This document shows positions 3,685-37,603 of a stretch of 64,000 nt of DNA, in pieces (position 1 is the stretch's first letter; each line of letters starts with the position of its first letter). Made by a program: the position numbers and the translations under genes. This stretch comes from Candidatus Giovannonibacteria bacterium RIFCSPHIGHO2_01_FULL_45_24 (GTDB taxonomy: Bacteria; Patescibacteriota; Minisyncoccia; UBA11713; 2-01-FULL-45-33): positions 17,995 through 81,994 of the forward strand of contig MFHE01000002.1 of NCBI GenBank assembly GCA_001778495.1. The letters run 5' to 3'. Below the pieces are notes generated by a model, which worked only from the letters and a program-made list of their open reading frames with translations, did not search any database and was not told the origin of the DNA.

Positions 3685-3761
3685 TTGACCCCGTTAGAGG
3701 TCGCGCCCGCGCTGCGCGCCCAAAGGGCCTCAAGGGCGGGCTACCTCTAACGGGGTTGACT
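3685..3761. repeat. long imperfect hairpin module TTGACCCCG...CGGGGTTGAC
   Basis: CCCCGTTAGAGGT (3689-3701) pairs with ACCTCTAACGGGG (3743-3755). Inner GCCCGC/GCGGGC adds pairing. Same terminal motifs as the GIY-YIG cassette at 30248-30571. Confidence 0.8.
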
Positions 3762-3784
3762 TATTTTTGGGGGTTTGCTAGAAT
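3756..3784 (+). promoter_or_regulatory. sigma70-type promoter of rpoBC
   Basis: TTGACT (3756-3761), 17-nt spacer, TAGAAT (3779-3784). The leader is about 165 nt and has hairpins at 3803-3817 and 3891-3919. Confidence 0.6.
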
Positions 3785-3954: not shown

Positions 3955-6900
3955 ATGCCGATACAAAAAAAATACTTCTCCCGTTACCGGGAGCCGCTGG
4001 CCAATCTGCCCAATTTAGCTGAAATGCAGCTGAAGTCTTTTAACTGGCTGCTCAAAACGGGGATTCGCGAGATTTTGGACGAGTTTTCGCCGATTGTGGA
4101 TTACACCGGGGAGGAATTGGTCCTGGAATTTTTGGATTATTCTTTTGACGAGCCGAAGTACGACGAAAATTACGCCAGAGTAAACAACCTGTCTTTCGAA
4201 TCTTCTTTTAGAATCCGCATCCGGCTTACCAATAAACGCACGGGAGAAAAAAAAGAGCAGGAAATTTTTCTGGCCGACATGCCGATGATGACCCCACGCG
4301 GAACTTTTTTAATAAACGGCGTTGAGCGCGTGATTGTCTCGCAGTTGGCCAGGTCTTTCGGCGCTTACTTTACTCTGGTCAATGTTTTCAAAGGCAGAAA
4401 GCTTTTCGGCGCCAAAGTCATTCCTTCGCGCGGCGCCTGGCTGGAGTTTGAAACGGAAAGCGACGGGGCGATTTACGCTAAAGTTGACCGCAAAAGAAAA
4501 ATCGCCGCTACTGCCCTTATGCGAATTTTCGGGCTGGAGAAAAATGACGAGATAATAAACGCTTTTTCAGCGGTGGACAACGGAGAAGTTTCTTTCATCA
4601 AAAAAACTCTGGAAAAAGACCCGACTAAAACCGCCGACGACTCTTACGTGGAAATTTTCAAAAGAATCCGCCAGGGTGAGCTGGCAACTCCCGACAACGC
4701 CCGCGAGCTCATAGGCACCATGTTCGGGCCGGAGAGGTATGACCTGTCCGCCGTCGGCAGATACAAGCTCGGCCAGCGTTTGCTTTCTTTGGCCGGCGTT
4801 AAGGTCAAAAACCCGCGAATTTTAAACAAGGAAGATCTGGTAGCCATACTTTCGGAGGTGATTTCTTTAAATAATAACCCATTGTCCCTGCCGGACGACA
4901 TTGATAACCTTGGCAACCGCCGCGTGCGCTCGGTTGGCGAGATGCTCCAGCAAAGATTGCGAATCGGGCTCGCGCGCATGGAGCGGACGATAAAAGACCG
5001 CATGTCCACCTCCGACCTTGCCACGATTACTCCCGCCCAGCTTTTAAACGCCCGGCCGTTCGCCGCCGTTATCTCCGAATTTTTTATGACCAACCAGCTT
5101 TCCCAATTTATGGACCAAACAAATATTCTTTCCGAGCTTGAGCACAAGCGCAGGGTTTCGGCCTTGGGCCCCGGGGGGCTCACGCGCGAGCGCTCCGGCT
5201 TTGAAGTTCGGGATGTCCACCCCTCTTATTACGGGCGGCTCTGCCCGATTATGACCCCCGAGGGGCCGAATATCGGGCTTATCAACTATCTTGCGGGATA
5301 CGCGCTGGTAAACGATTTCGGCATTTTGGAGACTCCTTACAGAAAAGTCATAAACGGCAAGGTGACGAATGAAATCAATTACCTCACGGCTTTTGAAGAA
5401 GCCCGGCATAAAATTGCCCAAGCCGGAGTCGCCATAGACACGGAAGGGAATATTTTGGACGAAGAAACAGAGGGTCGCTCCAATGGCCAGCCGGCGCTGA
5501 TAGCGAAATCGGAGATTGACTACATAGACGTTTCTCCCCAGCAAGCGTTTTCTATAGCCACTTCCTTGGTGCCGTTTTTGGAGCACGACGATTCAACCCG
5601 CGCCATGATGGGTTCAAACATGCAGCGCCAGGCCGTGCCCTGCGTGCGCCCCCAGGCGCCATTGGTCGCCACCGGCATGGAAGAAAAAGCCGCCCGGGAT
5701 TCCGGCCGGCTGATAATATCGGATATGGACGGCGCGGTAAGCGCCGTTGACGCGAAGTCTGTCACGGTGAAATTCGGCCGCAAAGAAAAAACATATGAAT
5801 TGGTGAATTTTGTCCGCTCTAACCAGTCAACAGTCATACACCAGCGCCCCTCTGTGAAGTTGGGCGACAAAATAAAAAAAGGCGACGTGCTTGCCGATAC
5901 TTCGCTTACCGACCGCGGACATTTGGCGCTAGGCCAAAATCTCCTCGTGGCTTTTCTTTCCTGGGGCGGGGCGAATTTTGAGGATGCGATTATTCTTTCC
6001 GACCGTTTGGTAAAAAATGACACCTTTACCTCTGTTTTGGCGGAGGACTACACGGTGGATGTCCGGGACACGAAGCTCGGGTCCGAGATCACTACGCACG
6101 ACATCCCCAACGTCGGCGAGGAGAAACTCAAAGATTTGGACGAAGACGGCATCATCTGCGTCGGCGCGGAAGTAAGAGCCGGCGACATACTTGTGGGGAA
6201 AATTTCCCCGAAAGGCGAATCCGACCTTACGCCCGAGGAGCGGCTTCTGCGCGCGATTTTCGGGGAAAAAGCAAGAGACGTAAAAGACACTTCTTTCCGC
6301 CTCCAGCACGGCAGGCACGGCCGCGTGGTCGGCATTAAAGTTTTCTCAAGGGAAAAAGGCGACAAATTAGAAACCGGAGTAATCAAAGAAATCCGCGTGG
6401 AGGTGGCGGAGATGCGGAAGGTTTCTCCCGGCGACAAGCTCGCCGGCCGCCATGGCAACAAAGGCGTGATTTCCCGCATTCTTCCGCAAGAAGATATGCC
6501 TTACCTCGCGGACGGCACTCCGGTTGACGTTATTTTAAATCCTTTGGGCGTCGCCTCGCGCATGAACATAGGCCAGATTTTGGAAACCCATCTGGGATGG
6601 GCGGCGGAGAAGCAGGGCTATATGGCAATAACGCCAACTCTGCTCGGAGCGACGGAGACCGAAATCAAATCGGAGCTTAAAAAAGCAGGCCTTCCCGAAG
6701 ACGGCAAGGTCCGGCTTTTTGACGGCCGCACCGGGAAAGAATTTGACCAGAAAGTCACTGTCGGAATGGTTTATTTAATGAAGCTCTCGCACATGGTAGA
6801 AGACAAGCTCCACATGCGCTCAATCGGGCCGTATTCTTTGATAACCCAGCAGCCGCTTGGAGGAAAAGCGCAGGGCGGAGGGCAAAGATTCGGCGAAATG

Positions 6901-7233
6901 GAAGTCTGGGCCTTGGAAGGATACGGCGCCGCGCACACTCTGCAGGAGATGCTGACTATAAAATCGGACGACGTTTTGGGCCGCGCGTCCGCTTACGACG
7001 CGATCGTGCGGGGCGAGCCGTTCCGCACTCCGAACGTGCCGGCATCCTTCCATGTTTTAGTGAACGAGCTTAAGGGGCTGGCGCTGGACGTTGAGCTTAG
7101 GGGGGTGAAGGAAGCGCCCGAAGATTCTGAAGAGTATGCCGAAAAAGCGCAGAAAAGCAAAGGGCGGCAAAAAGAGCGCTTTGAAGAATATATTTTAGAA
7201 GAGGAGGAAAAAACATGGAGTCGCAAAAAATAG
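3955..7233 (+). CDS. rpoB: DNA-directed RNA polymerase subunit beta
   Basis: Full-length RpoB motifs (MMTPRGTFLINGVERVIVSQL, GRHGNKGVISRI, GGQRFGEMEVWALEGYGAA). Confidence 0.98.
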   Translation: MPIQKKYFSRYREPLANLPNLAEMQLKSFNWLLKTGIREILDEFSPIVDYTGEELVLEFLDYSFDEPKYDENYARVNNLSFESSFRIRIRLTNKRTGEKKEQEIFLADMPMMTPRGTFLINGVERVIVSQLARSFGAYFTLVNVFKGRKLFGAKVIPSRGAWLEFETESDGAIYAKVDRKRKIAATALMRIFGLEKNDEIINAFSAVDNGEVSFIKKTLEKDPTKTADDSYVEIFKRIRQGELATPDNARELIGTMFGPERYDLSAVGRYKLGQRLLSLAGVKVKNPRILNKEDLVAILSEVISLNNNPLSLPDDIDNLGNRRVRSVGEMLQQRLRIGLARMERTIKDRMSTSDLATITPAQLLNARPFAAVISEFFMTNQLSQFMDQTNILSELEHKRRVSALGPGGLTRERSGFEVRDVHPSYYGRLCPIMTPEGPNIGLINYLAGYALVNDFGILETPYRKVINGKVTNEINYLTAFEEARHKIAQAGVAIDTEGNILDEETEGRSNGQPALIAKSEIDYIDVSPQQAFSIATSLVPFLEHDDSTRAMMGSNMQRQAVPCVRPQAPLVATGMEEKAARDSGRLIISDMDGAVSAVDAKSVTVKFGRKEKTYELVNFVRSNQSTVIHQRPSVKLGDKIKKGDVLADTSLTDRGHLALGQNLLVAFLSWGGANFEDAIILSDRLVKNDTFTSVLAEDYTVDVRDTKLGSEITTHDIPNVGEEKLKDLDEDGIICVGAEVRAGDILVGKISPKGESDLTPEERLLRAIFGEKARDVKDTSFRLQHGRHGRVVGIKVFSREKGDKLETGVIKEIRVEVAEMRKVSPGDKLAGRHGNKGVISRILPQEDMPYLADGTPVDVILNPLGVASRMNIGQILETHLGWAAEKQGYMAITPTLLGATETEIKSELKKAGLPEDGKVRLFDGRTGKEFDQKVTVGMVYLMKLSHMVEDKLHMRSIGPYSLITQQPLGGKAQGGGQRFGEMEVWALEGYGAAHTLQEMLTIKSDDVLGRASAYDAIVRGEPFRTPNVPASFHVLVNELKGLALDVELRGVKEAPEDSEEYAEKAQKSKGRQKERFEEYILEEEEKTWSRKK

Positions 7234-26959: not shown

Positions 26960-29776
26960 ATGGAAGCGAAAGAGGACGGCAAAAATTTTATAAGGATTAA
27001 GGGAGCCAGGGCGCATAACCTGAAAAATATTGATTTGGATATTCCAAAAAATAAATTGGTGGTAATCACCGGCATCTCCGGTTCGGGAAAATCTTCTCTG
27101 GCTTTTGACACCGTCTACGCCGAGGCGGAGCGGAGGTTCGTTGAATCGCTTTCTTCTTACGCCCGGCAATTTTTAGGCGTGAAGGAAAAGCCAGATGTTG
27201 AATCAATTTCCGGCCTTTCGCCGGCCATCGCCATTGACCAGAAAAGCGTCACAAAAAATCCGCGCTCAACCGTGGGGACGATTACGGAGATTTATGATTA
27301 TTTAAGAATACTTTTTGCGCGCGCCGGAAGCCCGCATTGCTCAAAATGCGGCAAAAAAATAGGCAAGCAGAGCGCGGATGAAATTTTGAAGCACATTTTT
27401 AAATTGAAAAATAGTTCGCAGATAAATATTTTGGCGCCCGTGGTCAGGGGCAAAAAGGGCGAGCACAAAAGCGTTTTGGAAATGGTGCGCCGCGTAGGAT
27501 TTTTGCGGGTGCGCATTGACGGCGAAATTATGCGCTTGGACGAAGCCGAAGATAAATCTTTAGACCCGAAAAAAGCGCACAATGTCGAAGTCGTAGTGGA
27601 CAGGTTAATCATTGACAAGGAATTGGATAGGCCAAGATTAAGAGAATCGTTGGAGACTGCGCTGAAGATAGGGAAAGGGCTGGTGTTGATAAACGAGGCC
27701 ATTTTTTCCGAGCATTTTGCCTGCCCGGATTGCGGGATTTCGCTTCCGGAAATTGAGCCGCGGCTTTTTTCTTTCAATTCTCCCTATGGCGCCTGCCCGC
27801 ATTGCACCGGCTTGGGAAGCACTTTAGAAGTTGAGCCGGATTTAGTTATCCCGAATAAAAATCTGACTTTGGCGGAGGGCGCTATCCGCCCGTGGGCAAC
27901 TGCGTCTCACAAAGTCGGCAGGCAGTCATGGTATTGGTGGATTTTGTCGGACTTGGCGGAGAGGCATAAATTTTCTCTTAACACGCCATTCGGGAAGCTC
28001 CAGCCGAATATTCAAAAAATTGTTTTAAATGGAGATCCCTCTACAAGCTCGGGACAAGTTTTCGAAGGAGTAATCGAAAACTTGAAGCGCCGGTGGAAGG
28101 AAACGGAATCGGAATGGACGCGGGAGGAAATTGAAAAATATATGCGAGTGGAAGTTTGCCCGGTTTGCAAGGGCAGGCGGCTTAAGCCGGAAGCGCTGGC
28201 TGTGACTTACGCTGACAAAAATATTTCCGAGATTTCGGCGTTGACTATTGAAGAGGCAAAGAACTTTTTTACCCCGTCGCTTTCCTCAACGCCGCCCGCA
28301 GGTTTCTTCCCGCCGGGCGGCGCTTTGCGTCCGCTTCTTAAAGAAATTTCGCGCAGGCTGGAATTTCTACTGGAGGTCGGCTTGGATTATCTGACCATAG
28401 ACCGCGAATCCACCACGTTGGCAGGTGGCGAGGCGCAGAGAGTGCGGCTTGCCACCCAAATCGGTTCGTCTCTCACGGGAGTTGTTTATGTTTTGGACGA
28501 GCCCTCAATTGGGCTTCACGCCCGCGACCACGCGCGGCTGATTAAAACATTAAAAAATCTTCGTGATTTGGGGAATACGATTTTAGTTGTGGAGCACGAC
28601 GCTGAAACAATGAAAGAGGCCGATTGGATAATTGATTTGGGCCCTGGCGCGGGCAAGCACGGCGGGAAAGTTATTTTTGAAGGAGAGTACCGCGAGCTAT
28701 TGAAAGCAAAAACTTTGACAGGAGAATATTTGAGCGGGAAGAAAGAAGTTACTTCTATGCGTGTCCTTGCAAAGCCTGCGGCAAAGACCGAGCTTTTCAT
28801 ACGAGGCGCTTCCGAGCATAATCTGAAAAACATTGACGTGAAAATTCCTTTGTGCAAGATGGTTGTGGTTTCCGGCGTCTCCGGCTCCGGAAAATCCTCA
28901 CTTATCTCCGATATTTTAGCGCGCGCGCTTCTTAAATATTTTTACGGCTCAAAAGAAGAGCCAGGCAAACATAAAAAAATTGAGGGATTGGAACATATTG
29001 ATAAGGCGGTTTTAGTTGACCAGTCGCCCATAGGCCGCACGCCGCGCTCAAACCCCGCGACTTACACTGGAGTGTTTTCATTTATGCGCGAAATCTACGC
29101 GCGCACTGTGGAGGCGCGTGCGAGGGGATACAAATCCGGCCGGTTTTCATTCAACGTAAAAGGCGGAAGGTGCGAGGTTTGCGAAGGGCAGGGAGTGAAA
29201 AAAATAGAAATGTATTTTTTGCCGGACATTTACGCGGAGTGCGAGGAGTGCCACGGAAAAAGATACAGTAAAGAAGCGCTTGAGATTTTATACCAGAATA
29301 AAAACATCGCCGATGTTCTGGATTTCTCCATTGAAGAAGCGCATAAATTTTTCAAAGACATTCCGCAGATTGAGCAGCGCTTGAAAACCTTGGTAGACGT
29401 CGGGTTGGGATATATGAAGCTTGGCCAGCCCGCGACGACGCTTTCGGGAGGCGAAGCGCAGAGAGTGAAGCTCGCGTTTGAACTTTCTAAAAAAGCGACG
29501 GGCAGGACCCTTTATATTTTAGATGAACCAACAACCGGCCTCCATTTTGACGATATTCAAAAATTATTAAATATTCTCCGCGCCTTGGTGGACAAGGGCA
29601 ACAGCGTCGTGGTGATTGAGCATAATATGGACGTCTTAAAAAACGCCGATTGGATAATTGACCTCGGTCCGGACGGAGGAGGCAACGGCGGCGAAATTAT
29701 CGCCGAAGGCGCGCCCAAAGAAATCGCGGCGCACAAAAAATCATACACCGGGGCGTGGTTAAGGAAGGTTATTTAG
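26960..29776 (+). CDS. uvrA: excinuclease ABC subunit A
   Basis: Two ABC ATPase modules ([18 protein letters not shown]), zinc-finger cysteines and LSGGEAQR signatures. Confidence 0.98.
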
Positions 29777-29796
29777 CGATTTTGTGGTAATTTACC

Positions 29797-29901
29797 AATT
29801 TGCAGTTTATTTGCTATAGCGCGAATACTGCAAATTCAAGATATGATATATCATAGTGGTTATATGGGCGACACTTTCTTCCGATCGTGCGAAAGTGTCG
29901 C
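29797..29901. other. two long perfect hairpins in the uvrA-downstream spacer
   Basis: AATTTGCAGT/ACTGCAAATT (29797-29836) and GCGACACTTTC/GAAAGTGTCGC (29868-29901). Confidence 0.7.
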
Positions 29902-29963
29902 ATAATAAATCAAGCAAAAACAGAGCTATTGATTGTTGGGATAAACAGCAGTACCATAAACTT

Positions 29964-30197
29964 ATGAAAAAATTTATCCAAGAAAATTGGTTTAAAATTG
30001 GATTATTGGTTATTTTTGTTATCTCTATTGTTGGCGCTTTTTATTGGTTCCAATTAAGACCAGCCCGGATTAGAAATGAATGCTCACAGTATTTAAGAGA
30101 ACCCATAAAAGCTTCGTCGTCCGGACGTCTACCAGAACAAACGTCAGGTGAAGTGATTTATAAAAAATGTTTGTTAGAATACGGTTTAGAAAAATAA
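29964..30197 (+). CDS. small membrane-anchored hypothetical protein (AT-rich)
   Basis: MKKFIQENWFKIGLLVIFVISIVGAFYWF. The track start at 29856 would read through the hairpin region. Confidence 0.5.
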   Translation: MKKFIQENWFKIGLLVIFVISIVGAFYWFQLRPARIRNECSQYLREPIKASSSGRLPEQTSGEVIYKKCLLEYGLEK

Positions 30198-30247
30198 ATC
30201 TACGAAAGTAACGGATTTATTTTTAAATCCACAGCGGGGGAGAAACC

Positions 30248-30571
30248 TTGACCCCGCACCTTTTGTTTTGTAACAATTGCTTTGTGTACTGGGTTTATAT
30301 TATCAAGAGCAAAAAGAATGATTCGTTGTACATAGGCAGCACATCAAATTTAGTGCGAAGACTATCTGAACATAACACTGGCAAATCACCGTCCACCGCG
30401 CGTTATATGCCGTGGAAATTTGTTTATGTAGAAGGCTATTTTTTGAAAGAAGACGCTCTTTATCGTGAGCATAATCTTAAACATTTTGGCAAAGTTTATG
30501 CTCAACTTAAGCGTAAAATAAAAAATAGCCTTAGTGCTGCCTAACTAGACTCAAAAGGTGCGGGGTTGACC
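30248..30571 (+). mobile_element. GIY-YIG gene cassette bounded by TTGACCCCG...CGGGGTTGAC and 14-bp perfect inverted repeats
   Basis: CCCCGCACCTTTTG (30252-30265) and CAAAAGGTGCGGGG (30552-30565). Confidence 0.6.
30284..30544 (+). CDS. GIY-YIG nuclease family protein (small, UPF0213-like)
   Basis: WVYIIKSKKNDSLYIGSTSNLVRRLSEHN. GTG 30284 is preferred because the track TTG 30248 lies inside the left inverted repeat. Confidence 0.75.
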   Translation: MYWVYIIKSKKNDSLYIGSTSNLVRRLSEHNTGKSPSTARYMPWKFVYVEGYFLKEDALYREHNLKHFGKVYAQLKRKIKNSLSAA

Positions 30572-30594
30572 CCGAAAGGGCGTTCTGATAGTAT
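30566..30594 (+). promoter_or_regulatory. sigma70-type promoter of groES-groEL
   Basis: TTGACC (30566-30571), 17 nt, TAGTAT (30589-30594). Confidence 0.65.
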
Positions 30595-30598
30595 CTCA

Positions 30599-30625
30599 TT
30601 AGCACTCGGAGGTCAGGAGTGCTAA
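30599..30625 (+). promoter_or_regulatory. CIRCE operator (HrcA binding site)
   Basis: TTAGCACTC-N9-GAGTGCTAA is an exact match to the CIRCE consensus, placed at the predicted TSS. Confidence 0.9.
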
Positions 30626-30666
30626 CACTATTCGTAGCATTCGGATGAAATTAGTAGATTAGCATT

Positions 30667-30972
30667 ATGCTTATGAACATAAAACCATTGGGCGACAGGG
30701 TTTTGATTGAGCCGCTTTCTGATGAGGAAAAGGCAAAGCAGTCAAAGGGCGGGATTTTAATACCGGACACCGCGGACAAGGAAAAGCCGCAGGAAGGGAA
30801 GATTATTGCTGTGGGAGAAGGGAAAAGAATGGAGAACGGAACATTGCAGCCGCTTTCCGTGAAAGCCGGAGACAGAGTTTTATTTTCCAAATACGGGCCG
30901 ACGGAGATAAAAATTGACGACAAAGAATATTTAATAGCGAAGGAGGAGGATATTTTAGGAATAATTGAATAA
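30667..30972 (+). CDS. groES: co-chaperonin GroES
   Basis: [13 protein letters not shown]...GGILIPD. Start is ATG 30667 or 30673. Confidence 0.95.
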
Positions 30973-30973
30973 C

Positions 30974-32647
30974 ATGGCAAAACAAATTTTATTTAATGAA
31001 TCGGCGCGAAGCGCCATCAAAAAGGGCATAGACAAGCTGGCGGAAGCTGTGCGGATGACTTTGGGCCCGCGGGGCCGGGCGGTGGTTATTGAAAAAGGAT
31101 ATGGCGCCCCGCAGGTGACTTTTGACGGCGTGACCGTGGCCAAAGAAATTGAACTTTCGGACAAATGGGAAAATTTGGGCGCGGAGTTTATCAAGCAGGC
31201 AGCCGACAAAACCAACGACCGCGTGGGCGACGGAACGACCACGGCGGTTGTTTTGGCGCACGCGATTATTGAAGAAGGCGAGCGGGCGATTCATGAAAAG
31301 GGCTTTAACGTAATCCAGCTCGCTGAGGAACTTAGAAAAGGGAGCGAGGCGGTGGTGAAGGAATTGGAGCAGCAAAAAGAAGACGTTTCCGACAATAAAA
31401 AATTGCAGGAGGTGGCGACGCTTGCGGCGAAAGACGCCGAGATAGGGAAACTTCTTGCAGAAGTGATGTCCAAAGTCGGGAGGGACGGCGTTGTGACGAT
31501 TGAGGATTCCAACACCGTCGGCAGTTCGCATGAAATGGTTGAAGGTCTGCAGTTTGACCGCGGCTACGTCTCTCCTTACATGATTTCAAATCAGGAGAAG
31601 ATGGCGGCGGAGCTGGAGGACCCTTATATTTTGGTGACCGACAAAAAAATATCGTCCATTCAGGATATTTTGAAATTGTTGGAAAAAATCTTGGCGACGG
31701 GCAAAAAAGAGCTGGTTTTGATCGCCGATGAAATTGAGGGCGAGGCGCTGGCAGCCCTTTTGGTTAACAAACTCCGAGGCGTGCTTAATGTTTTAGGAGT
31801 AAAAGCGCCAGGCTTCGGCGACAGGAGAAAAGAGATGCTGCAGGATATCGCCGTTGTGACCGGCGCGGAATTTATCTCCGAGGACTTGGGAAGAAAGCCG
31901 GAAAACACGGAGGTGAGCCATTTAGGCCACGCGCACAGAGTCGTCGCCGATAAGGACAATACCACAATTGTTGGCGGAAAGGGAGACAAAAAAGCGATTG
32001 AGGAAAGGGTTGCCCAAATCCGCGCGCAAATCAAAAAGACGGACTCGGAATACGAAAAGAAAAATTTGCAGGAGCGTGTGGGCAAGCTCTCCGGCGGGGT
32101 TGCGGTAATCAAAGTCGGCGCTCCGACCGAATCCGCACAAAAAGAATTAAAACAAAGAGTGGAAGATGCTGTGGCCGCAACCCGCGCCGCGATGGAGGAA
32201 GGAATTGTCCCCGGCGGAGGCATCGCGCTTTTTAATTTGGTTGTTTCGGCTCAAGGAGAAATTATTGAGCATGCCGTTTCTGCTACCCTGGCCGCTACTG
32301 GAATTTTGAATAAAGCGCTAAGAGCACCCGTAGAAGCCATCATTCAAAATAGCGGAGAATCCGTAAATAAAATTATTGATGAATTGGTAAAGCAAAAAAA
32401 GGCAAACAAGGGAGAGAATAACAAAGCGCAATGGCTGGGGTTTAACGCCGTAACCAATAAAATCGGCGACCTCAAAGAAGCCGGCATCATTGACCCGCTT
32501 AAGGTCGTAAAAACCGCTTTTGCGAACGCCGTTTCCGTCGCCGCGAACTATCTTACCGTCGGCGCGGCCGTCACCGAAATTCCGGAGAAAAACCCATCAA
32601 CAAGCTCGGGGCAGGGAGGCATGGGCGGCGGCCATATGGACTATTGA
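30974..32647 (+). CDS. groEL: chaperonin GroEL
   Basis: MAKQILFNE...DGTTTA...C-terminal GGMGGG tail. The track TTG at 30965 is the alternative start. Confidence 0.98.
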   Translation: MAKQILFNESARSAIKKGIDKLAEAVRMTLGPRGRAVVIEKGYGAPQVTFDGVTVAKEIELSDKWENLGAEFIKQAADKTNDRVGDGTTTAVVLAHAIIEEGERAIHEKGFNVIQLAEELRKGSEAVVKELEQQKEDVSDNKKLQEVATLAAKDAEIGKLLAEVMSKVGRDGVVTIEDSNTVGSSHEMVEGLQFDRGYVSPYMISNQEKMAAELEDPYILVTDKKISSIQDILKLLEKILATGKKELVLIADEIEGEALAALLVNKLRGVLNVLGVKAPGFGDRRKEMLQDIAVVTGAEFISEDLGRKPENTEVSHLGHAHRVVADKDNTTIVGGKGDKKAIEERVAQIRAQIKKTDSEYEKKNLQERVGKLSGGVAVIKVGAPTESAQKELKQRVEDAVAATRAAMEEGIVPGGGIALFNLVVSAQGEIIEHAVSATLAATGILNKALRAPVEAIIQNSGESVNKIIDELVKQKKANKGENNKAQWLGFNAVTNKIGDLKEAGIIDPLKVVKTAFANAVSVAANYLTVGAAVTEIPEKNPSTSSGQGGMGGGHMDY

Positions 32648-35944: not shown

Positions 35945-37603
35945 ATGCCCTCTCAAATTGAAGAAATAAAAAGCCGCGTAAATGTCGTGGATTTGGTGGG
36001 CTCGTATGTCCGGCTTGCCAAAGCCGGCGCCAATTTCAGGGCGCTTTGCCCGTTCCACAGCGAGCGGACGCCGTCTTTTAACGTTTCTCCGGCCAGGCAG
36101 ATCTGGCATTGCTTCGGCTGCGGCAAGGGCGGGGACATTTTTGAATTTATCCAGCAGATTGAAGGGGTGGAGTTCGCGGACGCTCTGCGGACTTTGGCCG
36201 ACCGCGCCGGAGTGGAGCTCAAGCACGAAGACCCGCGATTTCGCACGGAGCGCGCGCGGCAGTTCGCGCTTCTGGAAGAAGCCGCGAAATTTTTTGAATC
36301 TAACTTAGCAATCGGATTGCTAAGTCCACTTAGCAATCCGATTGCTAAGTATCTTCATGCGCGTGGCCTGACTGATGACACCATCCGCGAATTCCGCTTG
36401 GGTTACGCGCAGGATGAATGGCGCTCTCTCTCCGCTCATTTAAAAAACAAGGATTTTTCCGCGGCGGAGATAGAAAAATCGGGGCTTGTTGTCAAAAATC
36501 AGCGCGATTTTTACGACCGCTTTCGCGGGCGGATAATGTTCCCGATTTTTGATTACAACGGCAGGGTAGCAGCTTTCGGCGGGAGAATTTTTCCGGAAAA
36601 AGATAACGAGTCAAAATATGTAAATTCGCCGGAAACTATTCTTTACCAAAAAAGCAAAACTTTGTATGCGCTCAACAAATCAAAAACGGAAATTATGCGC
36701 CAAAAAGAGTGCGTTGTGGTTGAGGGCTATATGGATGCGATTATGTCCTGGCAGGGCGGGGTAAAAAATGTCGCGGCATCTTCCGGAACGGCTTTCACTG
36801 AAGACCAGCTAAAGACAATCAAACGGCTTGCCGATAGGATGATTTTCTCTTTTGACGCCGACTCGGCCGGCGAGTCGGCGTCAAAACGCGGCATTGCTTT
36901 GGCCTTGGAGCGCGGATTTGAGGTGAGAGTGGCCGGAGGGTTGGGCGTTAAGGACCCGGCCGAAGCAGTCGCGAAAAATCCGGAGATTTGGCAAAAAGCC
37001 GTTTCCGCTTCGCGCCATATTGTTGAATTTTATCTGGATTCGGCCGTGAAAAAATTCCACCCTGCCTCCCCGGAAGCCAAACGTGAAATTCAAAAAACGG
37101 TTTTGCCGGTGGTTGCGTCCTTGGGCGAGCTTGAGCGCGCGCATTGGGCGAGGGAATTGAGCAATATTTTAAATATAAAAGAAGAAGCCGTCTGGGCGGC
37201 TTTGAAAAAAGCGAATACCGCCCTTTCACAGGAAGGAGAAAATGTTTTCGGAGATGAGCAAGGATCCGCGCGCAATAATAACAGAAAATCATTGCTTGAG
37301 GGCAGGATTTTAGCCATCGCCGCGGAATATCCGGCGCTTTCCCAAAAACTTGACCCGGCCTTTCAAAATCTGCTCGCCCAGAGCAACAAAACAGCCATCT
37401 TCGCGGAAATTTTACTCAACAATCTCGCTGACGCCGAAGTGGAATTCATAAAATGCCAGCGGGAGCTTAAAAAAGAGTATTTAAAAGAGCGTCTGGTTGC
37501 GCTTTCCGGAGAGATAAGCGGCGCGGAGCGCAAAGGCGCGGGAAATCTAAAAACGCTCCTGGGGGAATTTCATAAAATTTCCAAAGAATTAAATCAAATA
37601 TGA
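35945..37603 (+). CDS. dnaG: DNA primase
   Basis: Zn ribbon [30 protein letters not shown] and [14 protein letters not shown]...DADSAG. Confidence 0.95.
36304..36349. repeat. REPIN-like doublet, in frame in dnaG
   Basis: CTTAGCAAT-CGG-ATTGCTAAG, tcca, CTTAGCAAT-CCG-ATTGCTAAG. Confidence 0.95.

Follow-up and report, generated by a model that had tools for sequence, protein, structure and literature searches.

Insertion sequences (IS) and miniature inverted-repeat transposable elements (MITEs) are known at bacterial promoters, where outward-facing -35 boxes in IS ends make hybrid promoters, and the Correia elements of Neisseria belong to the same circle. They are small, have terminal inverted repeats and target-site duplications, insert beside genes, affect or supply promoter hexamers and leave derivatives without an open reading frame (ORF), and in all of this they resemble the subject of this work, a cassette with a single gene for a GIY-YIG nuclease that lies upstream of groES in a 64,000-nt stretch of Candidatus Giovannonibacteria bacterium RIFCSPHIGHO2_01_FULL_45_24 (contig MFHE01000002.1, positions 17,995 to 81,994 of the forward strand; hereafter the window, meaning the whole stretch analysed). 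They differ from it in having DDE-type transposases or none (as in Correia elements, with their TA duplication) and in carrying the -35 box in the element end; in the cassette, it is the duplicated target that constitutes the -35 box, and the GIY-YIG nuclease gene is the only one.

The REP/RAYT systems (REPtrons) and the IS200/IS605 elements use HUH Y1 transposases and leave no target duplication. They resemble the cassette in their small nuclease gene between hairpin-forming inverted repeats and in their dispersed ORF-less palindromes, and IS200/IS605 also in the recognition of single-stranded hairpins and in short, specific target words such as TTAC or TTGAT; the cassette differs from both in its GIY-YIG fold and in duplications that are mostly 3-5 bp long. 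Slx1 cuts branched, flap and stem-loop DNA, the type of substrate that a hairpin element offers. Its nuclease domain and the UPF0213 proteins (YhbQ, COG2827) are the best sequence and fold matches of the window protein; common to them is a URI/GIY-YIG domain, about 85-100 aa long, that stands by itself. Slx1 differs in that it serves repair in eukaryotes, has a RING domain and pairs with Slx4, and for UPF0213 proteins no function, mobility or flanking repeats are described in the papers searched.

Brown et al. are said to have been the first, in 2015, to note GIY-YIG ORFs in non-intron insertions of rRNA genes in the candidate phyla radiation (CPR). Intervening sequences (IVS), inserts that RNase III removes from the rRNA, are known with small ORFs from the 23S rRNA genes of Leptospira, Coxiella and Salmonella (Pfam 23S_rRNA_IVP). 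Such IVS share with our elements the form of hairpin-bounded inserts at the tips of RNA helices, some with a small ORF, and their horizontal spread (PMC11270868); they differ in their ORF family and are not reported in promoters. The present family has members inside small-subunit (SSU) rRNA and RNase P RNA genes, and its window copy lies in a promoter. According to PMC11270868, the insertions that encode GIY-YIG proteins in CPR rRNA genes belong neither to the group I nor to the group II introns and apparently do not home. These are probably the same elements as ours, members of which we found in the V1, V2 and V3 loops of 16S rRNA; that account is without terminal inverted repeats, target-site duplications, a mechanism, or sites in promoters, tRNA genes and RNase P, and the window copy is not in an RNA gene. 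Large helix extensions without ORFs have been described in CPR RNase P RNAs (PMC8172020). In the full-text literature searched, neither GIY-YIG elements bounded by terminal repeats or duplications nor a targeting of -35 boxes is described. We file the cassette as a combination of known kinds, a small insertion element with terminal inverted repeats and a selfish GIY-YIG gene, with a substantial chance that it belongs to a new class of transposon.

Insertion into the predicted groES promoter

The analysis covered the 64-kb window together with metagenome-assembled genome (MAG) and metagenome sequences, with taxon labels as given in their records. The GroES proteins closest to that of the window are 89-93% identical and come from Giovannonibacteria, and their contigs (L065, L061 and L058) have no GIY-YIG gene ahead of groES. 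In L065, a complete Giovannonibacteria genome of 651 kb, the order uvrA, hypothetical gene, groES, groEL, hypothetical gene, LemA is the same as in the window. All three cassette-less contigs read AAACC(A)TTGAC, a spacer of 17-18 nt, TAxxAT and then CIRCE (controlling inverted repeat of chaperone expression), with AAACCTTGAC as the -35 region; the L065 promoter reads ...AAATCCACAGCGGGGCCTGAAACCTTGACTAAGATATGGGCGTTTTGGTAATATACCCATTAGCACTCGGAGGTCAGGAGTGCCAA, and the empty site of the groES locus would read GAGAAACCTTGACCCCGAAAGGG. The junctions in the window are AAATCCACAGCGGGGGAGAAACCTTGA-cassette-TTGACCCCGAAAGGGCGTTCTGATAGTATCTCATTAGCACTCGGAGGTCAGGAGTGCTAA, with the left flank AAACCTTGA and a right flank that continues as TTGAC...TAGTAT...CIRCE. 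When the four sequences are aligned, the flanks match on both sides and the relatives show a clean gap of about 318 nt, corresponding to the cassette and one copy of TTGA. Since the relatives keep the same promoter without the cassette, the promoter predates the insertion and TTGA is a target-site duplication. The empty sites thus show that the predicted TTGAC -35 box and groES promoter are ancestral and that the cassette entered within the -35 hexamer. Because the duplication consists of the first four bases of the -35 box, its downstream copy together with host sequence regenerates TTGACC-17-TAGTAT-CIRCE.

An earlier note on this DNA had suggested that a nuclease cassette with inverted-repeat ends had either integrated into the core groESL promoter or created it. 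The empty sites in L065, L061 and L058 support the integration and refute the creation, as the TTGAC box is already there in relatives without the cassette. The same note had the right end of the cassette supplying the -35 box, which is imprecise, TTGA being a 4-bp host duplication and not element sequence. It had also named relatives without the cassette but with an unchanged CGGGGTTGACC as evidence to the contrary; the relatives carry AAACCTTGAC instead.

The element proper measures 314 bp (30252-30565), from CCCCG to CGGGG. A repeat search gave its terminal arms as ACCCCGCACCTTTTG (30251-30265) and CAAAAGGTGCGGGGT (30552-30566), which are 100% complementary and 286 nt apart; the GIY-YIG ORF is enclosed by them as had been noted, though they are 15 nt long and not 14. 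The sequence TTGACCCCG is present at 30248 and again at 30566. On the left, TTGA and the first two element bases make a hybrid -35-like hexamer, TTGACC (30248-30253), which is followed by a 17-nt spacer, TAACAA (30271-30276) and the GTG start codon; the spacer is as previously given, while the gap before GTG is 7 nt, not 8. A consensus promoter scan of 29700-30800 returned exactly two sigma-70-like sites, this left pair and the right TTGACC/TAGTAT. The right pair, 17 nt apart and followed by a perfect CIRCE, was thereby confirmed from sequence and scan as the predicted groES promoter, and the full set of sigma-70/CIRCE signals of a groESL promoter (-35, 17-nt spacer, -10 and TTAGCACTC-N9-GAGTGCTAA) can be recognised upstream of groES.

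The same cassette was found in the same context on 17 independent metagenome contigs, and is therefore not an assembly artefact. Only two places in the 64-kb window, against 0.1 in shuffles, combine a perfect inverted repeat with arms of 11 bp or more (loop 20-450) and a flanking direct duplication of 4 nt or more: the groES cassette and a hairpin at 3688-3756. In a single-strand fold the terminal stem closes the cassette (z=-6.9). No second GIY-YIG copy was found within the window, where Rfam at gathering threshold returned three tRNAs only and no family or intron matching the cassette. The arms were also considered as a terminator, a reading we abandoned because a scan calls no terminator at either arm and the relatives are without the partner sequence. 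We likewise dropped TTGACCCCG as a genome-wide motif: it has 7 matches against 0.43 expected, but three are in apparently unrelated settings (10518 is apparently coding, and 50490 and 50979 belong to a pair of paralogous repeats), and at a fourth, 19574, the spacing is 21 nt.

A second hairpin upstream of rpoB

The RpoB of the window is 100% identical to a Candidatus Giovannonibacteria protein. Upstream of its gene (3955-7233), the ORF-less hairpin has on its right a TTGACT (3756) that lies 17 nt from TAGAAT (3779-3784), with 10/12 matches. Relatives with RpoB 83-84% identical (L148 and L151) have no hairpin and read ...GGACTTGACACCCTTTTGTTTATTTGCTAACAT and ...TGGCTTGACAACATTTCTGCTATTTGCTAGCAT, with promoters of the form TTGACA-17-TAACAT/TAGCAT, so that a host-target duplication and an empty site are found for rpoB as well as for groES. 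The hairpin thus occupies the predicted rpoB-upstream -35 box in the same way as the groES cassette does its own. Its arms (3689-3755) differ from those of the cassette; common to the two are only the CCCCG termini and the TTGA duplication. Arms of the form CCCCGTTAGA(A/G)..., like those of the 3689 element, mark a second hairpin family at L014 (134-240, 1378-1629 and 4812-4943; = L055) and at L049:4405-4475; the three L014 copies lie within 6 kb of one Patescibacteria genome, and two of them have TGAA duplications.

A dispersed family of elements

The window GIY-YIG protein has 57 relatives at E<1e-5. Three homologues, 73-78% identical, lie in unrelated contexts (HicAB/NYN genes, a CTP-transferase/EamA pair and a sigma-factor region), and all three are bracketed by ACCCCGCACCTTTT(A/C)AGC(A/G)C...G(C/T)GCT(T/G)AAAAGGTGCGGGGT, in which the inner differences are compensatory. 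When we scanned one genome per GTDB species for the arms, as CCCCGCACCTTTT-N(262-292)-AAAAGGTGCGGGG, we obtained 41 stretches, nearly all around a GIY-YIG ORF 40-79% identical to the window protein, in MAGs labelled Saccharibacteria, several Parcubacteria groups, Peribacteria, Elusimicrobia, Omnitrophota, Bdellovibrionales, Gammaproteobacteria and Planctomycetia. Given this range of protein identity, the 13-nt termini are far better conserved than the protein they enclose. Since such a scan selects on the arms, a second set of 80 metagenome loci was fetched by protein similarity alone, arms ignored. Perfect inverted repeats of 12-24 bp bracket the ORF in 63 of these 80 loci (chance, about 0.0005 per locus); their termini vary, keeping a C-run and then CAC(C), as in ACCCCGCACCTTTT, ATCCCACACCTTTT, ACCCCCACACCAATT, CCCCCCACCACTTTT and GCCCCTCACTTGG.

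Arm positions 14-19, which the scan left free, pair in 81-90% of the genome copies against 30-50% in shuffled ones, with 3-4 pair types each, and pairing ends at position 20. RNAalifold, run on 42 elements, retrieved only the terminal 18-bp helix, in which five pairs are compensatory in 8-17 sequences, and no conserved structure beyond this stem. Mismatches in the arms are without strand bias (33 G.T against 23 A.C, p=0.23), hence there is no sign of a constraint acting only on the sense RNA, which fits a constraint at the DNA level; pairing in RNA only was rejected for want of a G.U excess over A.C. The copies therefore have conserved terminal inverted repeats, as insertion elements do, and they have no recognised transposase (DDE, HUH, serine or tyrosine), the sole ORF between the arms being the GIY-YIG one. 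ORF-less derivatives with GIY-YIG-type arms and TTGA duplications adjoin full copies in L011 (65 nt), L018 (143 nt), L049 (129 nt) and L040 (95 nt). On these comparisons the cassette belongs to a widespread element family, which we did not find described in the searchable literature. Viral contigs, checked for carriage by phages, gave 0 matches to the cassette pattern. Many left arms read CCCCCACACCA, and we considered that they might mimic a tRNA 3' end (acceptor strand, A and CCA); the idea was dropped, as the invaded tRNAs have unrelated acceptor stems.

Flanking duplications and target preference

A direct duplication of at least 3 nt stands right outside CCCCG...CGGGG in 32 of the 44 non-redundant genome copies, against 17% of shuffled pairings. 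The duplications are mostly 3-5 bp, occasionally up to 7 (TTGA, TCAA, TTTA, TTAT, TAGA, TAAA, GAAC, CACA and TGTG, and in tRNA genes CCGGTAG, CCAGTAG and CCTATAG), and since they differ between sites they are host sequence. Most begin with T and end with A, with G enriched at the positions -3 to -1 before them (18-23/50) and C at +1 after them (23/50), so that the preferred target looks like GGG-TNNA-CCC, the sequence that abutting element ends would form.

Among the 99 elements with scored junctions, 23 have a TTGA or TCAA duplication, and TTGA outnumbers TCAA by 20 to 3 (p=0.0005); in other words, the ORF is co-oriented with the -35 box in 20/23 copies of this type. A -10-like hexamer occurs 16-18 nt past the regenerated TTGAC in 15 of the 20 TTGA copies, compared with 6 of 76 other copies. 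Another junction, AAA-element-AAAGGTCG, recurs in different genomes (L027, L033, L036, L088 and L021:7050-7120); TATAAT precedes it in L027, and it may be a further preferred target near a transcription start.

Copies in RNA genes

According to Rfam, SSU rRNA genes harbour the copies of L023 and L031, and RNase P RNA genes those of L017 and L039; by their flanks further copies are located at 16S V1, V2 and V3 and at RNase P P12 (loci in Table 1). Nine copies lie exactly between a GATCG-like sequence and AGGAAAGTCC, at the P3 position of RNase P, and the junction GATCG-element-AGGAAAGTCC recurs in different lineages. The copies in RNase P and 16S replace or extend helices, mostly without a recognisable duplication. 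In tRNA genes, ARAGORN finds intact tRNAs that begin with the end of the right arm, which contributes their first 4-6 bases. Here the duplication and the terminal G-run regenerate the 5' strand of the acceptor stem, by the same logic as the repair of the -35 box. In L084 and L129 a second element begins right after the tRNA 3' end.

The GIY-YIG protein

The protein has the beta-beta-alpha-beta-alpha topology of the GIY-YIG superfamily (PF01541), to which it belongs, and the residues Y5, Y16, G18, R26, H30, Y48, E50, R61, E62 and K66 are invariant or nearly so among 32-42 sequences. Profile comparison with PDB sequences ranks 1zg2 (UPF0213 BH0048) first at 2.7e-11, then 1ywl (EF2693) at 6e-8, then SLX1 at 1e-6. 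An AlphaFold (AF2) model has a predicted local distance difference test (pLDDT) score of 92.8; Foldseek likewise lists UPF0213 1zg2 first and then Slx1 nuclease domains (36-38% identity, template-modelling (TM) score 0.64-0.70), with I-TevI lower (TM 0.53, 19% identity). Sequence profile and fold comparison thus agree on the UPF0213/Slx1 branch, as opposed to the I-TevI or UvrC types. The architecture of the homing endonucleases I-TevI, I-BmoI and Seg, in which a GIY-YIG domain at the N-terminus is followed by a C-terminal DNA-binding domain and the length typically exceeds 200 aa, is absent: there is a single 86-aa domain with no DNA-binding extension, and the NCBIfam model grpIintron_endo scores 23 bits over residues 4-33, below its cut-off of 56. 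Nor is there the intron residence or the single cognate allele of a homing endonuclease gene, as Rfam finds no intron and the copies occupy many unrelated loci.

Homologues begin M-Y-W-V-Y at the codon aligned to GTG 30284, which they indicate as the probable true start. In public gene calls (P0001) the ORF has 98 aa and begins with TTG 30248 of the duplicated -35 box. In L011, L018, L020, L038, L042 and L051 the ORF runs through the right arm and has a tail ...EKVRG, ...QKVRG or ...KKVRG; in those flanked by TTGA (L011, L018, L038, L042 and L051) the TGA of the duplication is the stop codon, and in L020 (TCAA) the frame continues into the flank. An internal 13-bp repeat (30432-30444 and 30520-30532) falls between the EGYF and KNSL codons. 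It is kept with compensatory changes in a subfamily only (63% of cells paired across 42 elements), in which a switch between TTTTT/AAAAA and CGCC/GGCG couples the amino acids F/K and A/R.

Table 1. Coordinates of the features in the window (positions of the whole stretch) and loci of family members in RNA genes.
Feature	Position	Strand	Remarks
Left TTGA duplication copy	30248..30251	+	4 bp; single TTGAC in the empty sites L065, L061, L058
Left terminal inverted repeat, CCCCGCACCTTTTG	30252..30265	+	15 bp counting A30251; arm also brackets GIY-YIG ORFs at unrelated loci
-10-like TAACAA / AACAAT	30271..30277	+	17-18 nt past the left TTGACC; consensus match only
GIY-YIG nuclease ORF	30284..30544	+	86 aa, GTG start; Pfam PF01541 E=3.4e-19
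Internal 13-bp inverted repeat in ORF	30431..30533	+	AAGGCTATTTTTT 30432-30444 / AAAAAATAGCCTT 30520-30532, perfect
Right terminal inverted repeat, CAAAAGGTGCGGGG	30552..30565	+	Repeat search, and arms shared by other copies
Regenerated groES -35 box, TTGACC	30566..30571	+	Right TTGA copy and host CC
groES -10 box, TAGTAT	30589..30594	+	17 nt from the -35 box, TGa before it; aligns with TAATAT, TAACAT, TATTAT in relatives
CIRCE operator, TTAGCACTC-N9-GAGTGCTAA	30599..30625	+	Perfect; conserved in relatives
groES (30667-30972) and groEL (30974-32647)	30667..32647	+	Operon of the interrupted promoter; Cpn10 E=1e-33
ORF-less hairpin element	3685..3759	+	67 nt (3689-3755), TTGA-CCCCGTTAGAGGT...ACCTCTAACGGGG-TTGA, fold z=-5.9
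RNase P P3 copies			L017, L022, L039, L050, L081, L103, L116, L119, L133
RNase P P12 copies			L118; L039:2880-3001
16S V1-V3 copies			L023, L031, L070, L094, L106, L111, L125, L127, L128, L139
tRNA 5'-end copies			First 7-11 nt of gene; L073, L076, L082, L084, L112, L113, L129, L137

Two further observations concern other parts of the window. The heptapeptide PSTSSGQ occurs in two unrelated proteins, in UvrA (28037-28057) and in the C-terminal linker of GroEL (32594-32614), where it is coded by ...ACAAGCTCGGG(A/G)CA..., and relatives differ at the GroEL position. At 36303-36350 there are two copies of the 23-nt palindromic ACTTAGCAATC(G/C)GATTGCTAAGT, with 2 nt between them.

Mode of movement and alternatives

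The explanation we favour, with a probability of roughly 0.8, is that the cassette is a 314-bp mobile element whose sole gene is that of a Slx1/UPF0213-type GIY-YIG nuclease, that it inserted in the groESL -35 box, which the TTGA duplication rebuilt, and that its own nuclease presumably moves it. The sequence comparisons show an insertion in a pre-existing predicted -35 box with a 4-bp duplication, terminal repeats that are conserved and covary, a nuclease gene that reads as intact and ORF-less derivatives, and they show the element dispersed to unrelated sites and phyla; the part played by the nuclease we infer. When single-stranded or extruded as a cruciform, the element would fold into a long hairpin, and its Slx1-like nuclease, which probably acts as a dimer, could nick each strand at the foot of the stem, immediately 3' of the terminal G-run; an equivalent cut with a 4-nt stagger could be made at targets resembling GGG-TNNA-CCC, the sequence of abutted element ends, after which gaps filled by host repair would give the duplication.

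At the groES locus, groESL would stay expressed and under HrcA regulation, only the DNA upstream of the -35 box having been replaced; we take the promoter to be probably still functional, since no signal from the -35 box on is damaged and many samples share the arrangement. On the other side of the cassette, the left TTGA and CC, with the element-borne TAACAA/AACAAT, probably drive a near-leaderless transcript of the nuclease gene, a form of promoter capture. The 20:3 orientation bias supports such a capture, although the putative -10 element is weak. As a rule for the whole family, a leaderless promoter was rejected, given start distances of 19-52 nt and inconsistent -10-like hexamers, and it is kept for the window copy, where it seems plausible.

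A cassette-bearing allele would then spread among related strains via homologous recombination. L001, L009 and L010, compared with window positions 28956-32235, have 100% identity across the cassette and near flanks and 70-88% in the outer flanks, with break points at about 31500 on the right and at about 30010-30155 and 29713 on the left. This mosaic could mean that homologous recombination carried the cassette allele from one diverged strain to another, as might follow a break at an empty site.

Several points weigh against this explanation. The mosaic could be a chimera of metagenome assembly, and the -35 preference could reflect the survival of harmless insertions instead of targeting. The duplications vary in length (3-7 nt), and about one third of the copies, notably those in RNase P and rRNA, have none. 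The -10-like hexamer of the nuclease gene (TAACAA/AACAAT) is weak, and the start codon lies anywhere from 19 to 52 nt from the left end across copies. GIY-YIG enzymes are hydrolytic, and we know of no strand transfer by them; moreover, the predicted 86-aa protein has no obvious DNA-binding module. The arm scan covered gaps of 262-292 nt, i.e. elements of ORF size, and in larger elements the same ends could also stand around a conventional transposase.

This last point leads to the chief rival, which we regard as unlikely though deserving attention: the cassette could be a non-autonomous, MITE-like element moved in trans by an unseen transposase, with the GIY-YIG gene as cargo (a selfish, addiction or defence nuclease). 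The ORF-less derivatives in L011, L018, L049 and L040, with the same arms and TTGA duplications, would be expected of it, a 4-bp duplication is typical of the staggered cuts of transposases, and GIY-YIG nucleases hydrolyse DNA and cannot rejoin it. However, GIY-YIG is the sole gene between the arms in more than 90 copies from many phyla, its catalytic residues are conserved, arm sequence and protein diversify together, and about 400 kb of fetched loci held no partnered arms at a larger spacing. Far less probable is an ordinary free-standing GIY-YIG homing endonuclease gene, copied into a cleaved empty allele, with an inverted repeat that is incidental. Besides its domain and selfish look, this would account for the cassette and near flanks being identical in strains whose outer flanks are 12-30% different, a pattern that resembles co-conversion tracts. 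Yet homing endonucleases of this class have C-terminal DNA-binding domains where here there is the 86-aa catalytic domain only, and the fold is nearer Slx1 than I-TevI; the arms, conserved and covarying across unrelated insertion sites, and the site-specific duplications from many host sequences point to insertion at non-homologous sites.

We give as little credence to the proposal that the repeat acts at the RNA level (as a stem closing the mRNA, an RNase III site, an IVS-like helix or a terminator of the upstream gene) around a gene that is resident and not mobile. The stem is predicted in the single-strand fold, and for members inside rRNA, RNase P RNA and tRNA genes a closing stem would make the insert stick out without harm. 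Against this stand the three close relatives with intact flanks and no cassette, the flanking duplications, the lack of a G.U excess over A.C mismatches and of any Rfam family match, and the conservation across phyla of the arm sequence itself and not of pairing alone; in addition, a transcript from the hybrid promoter would begin past the left arm.

Building on the mobile-element explanation, a wider hypothesis can be put forward, which we hold tentatively and at somewhat less than even odds. The family could be a new class of prokaryotic transposable elements whose sole enzyme, a minimal, structure-specific Slx1-like GIY-YIG nuclease, recognises the hairpin or cruciform ends of the element. 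Insertion would take place at sites like GGG-TNNA-CCC, with a preference for -35 boxes, tRNA 5' ends and the tips of RNase P and rRNA helices, where the host signal is rebuilt from the duplication and the terminal bases, and the element could in this way reside inside essential genes and promoters. The GIY-YIG insertions and short non-intron insertions of CPR rRNA genes, so far without an explanation, might likewise stem from this class.

Significance

The groES locus illustrates how a selfish element can lodge in the core promoter of an operon that is essential and under tight control while its host survives, the duplication being the -35 box, and the same trick appears at the rpoB-upstream promoter of the window and at tRNA 5' ends elsewhere. 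For annotation, gene callers take the TTG in the -35 box for the start of the ORF, and finders of RNA genes miss RNase P or tRNA genes that are split by inserts. One family with defined ends and duplications would unite the CPR rRNA GIY-YIG insertions, the oversized RNase P helices and many stand-alone UPF0213-type genes, and the origin and movement of such insertions become directly testable. If the 86-aa nuclease is indeed the mobility enzyme, it would represent a new chemistry of transposition and a very small nuclease specific for both sequence and structure, possibly of practical use.

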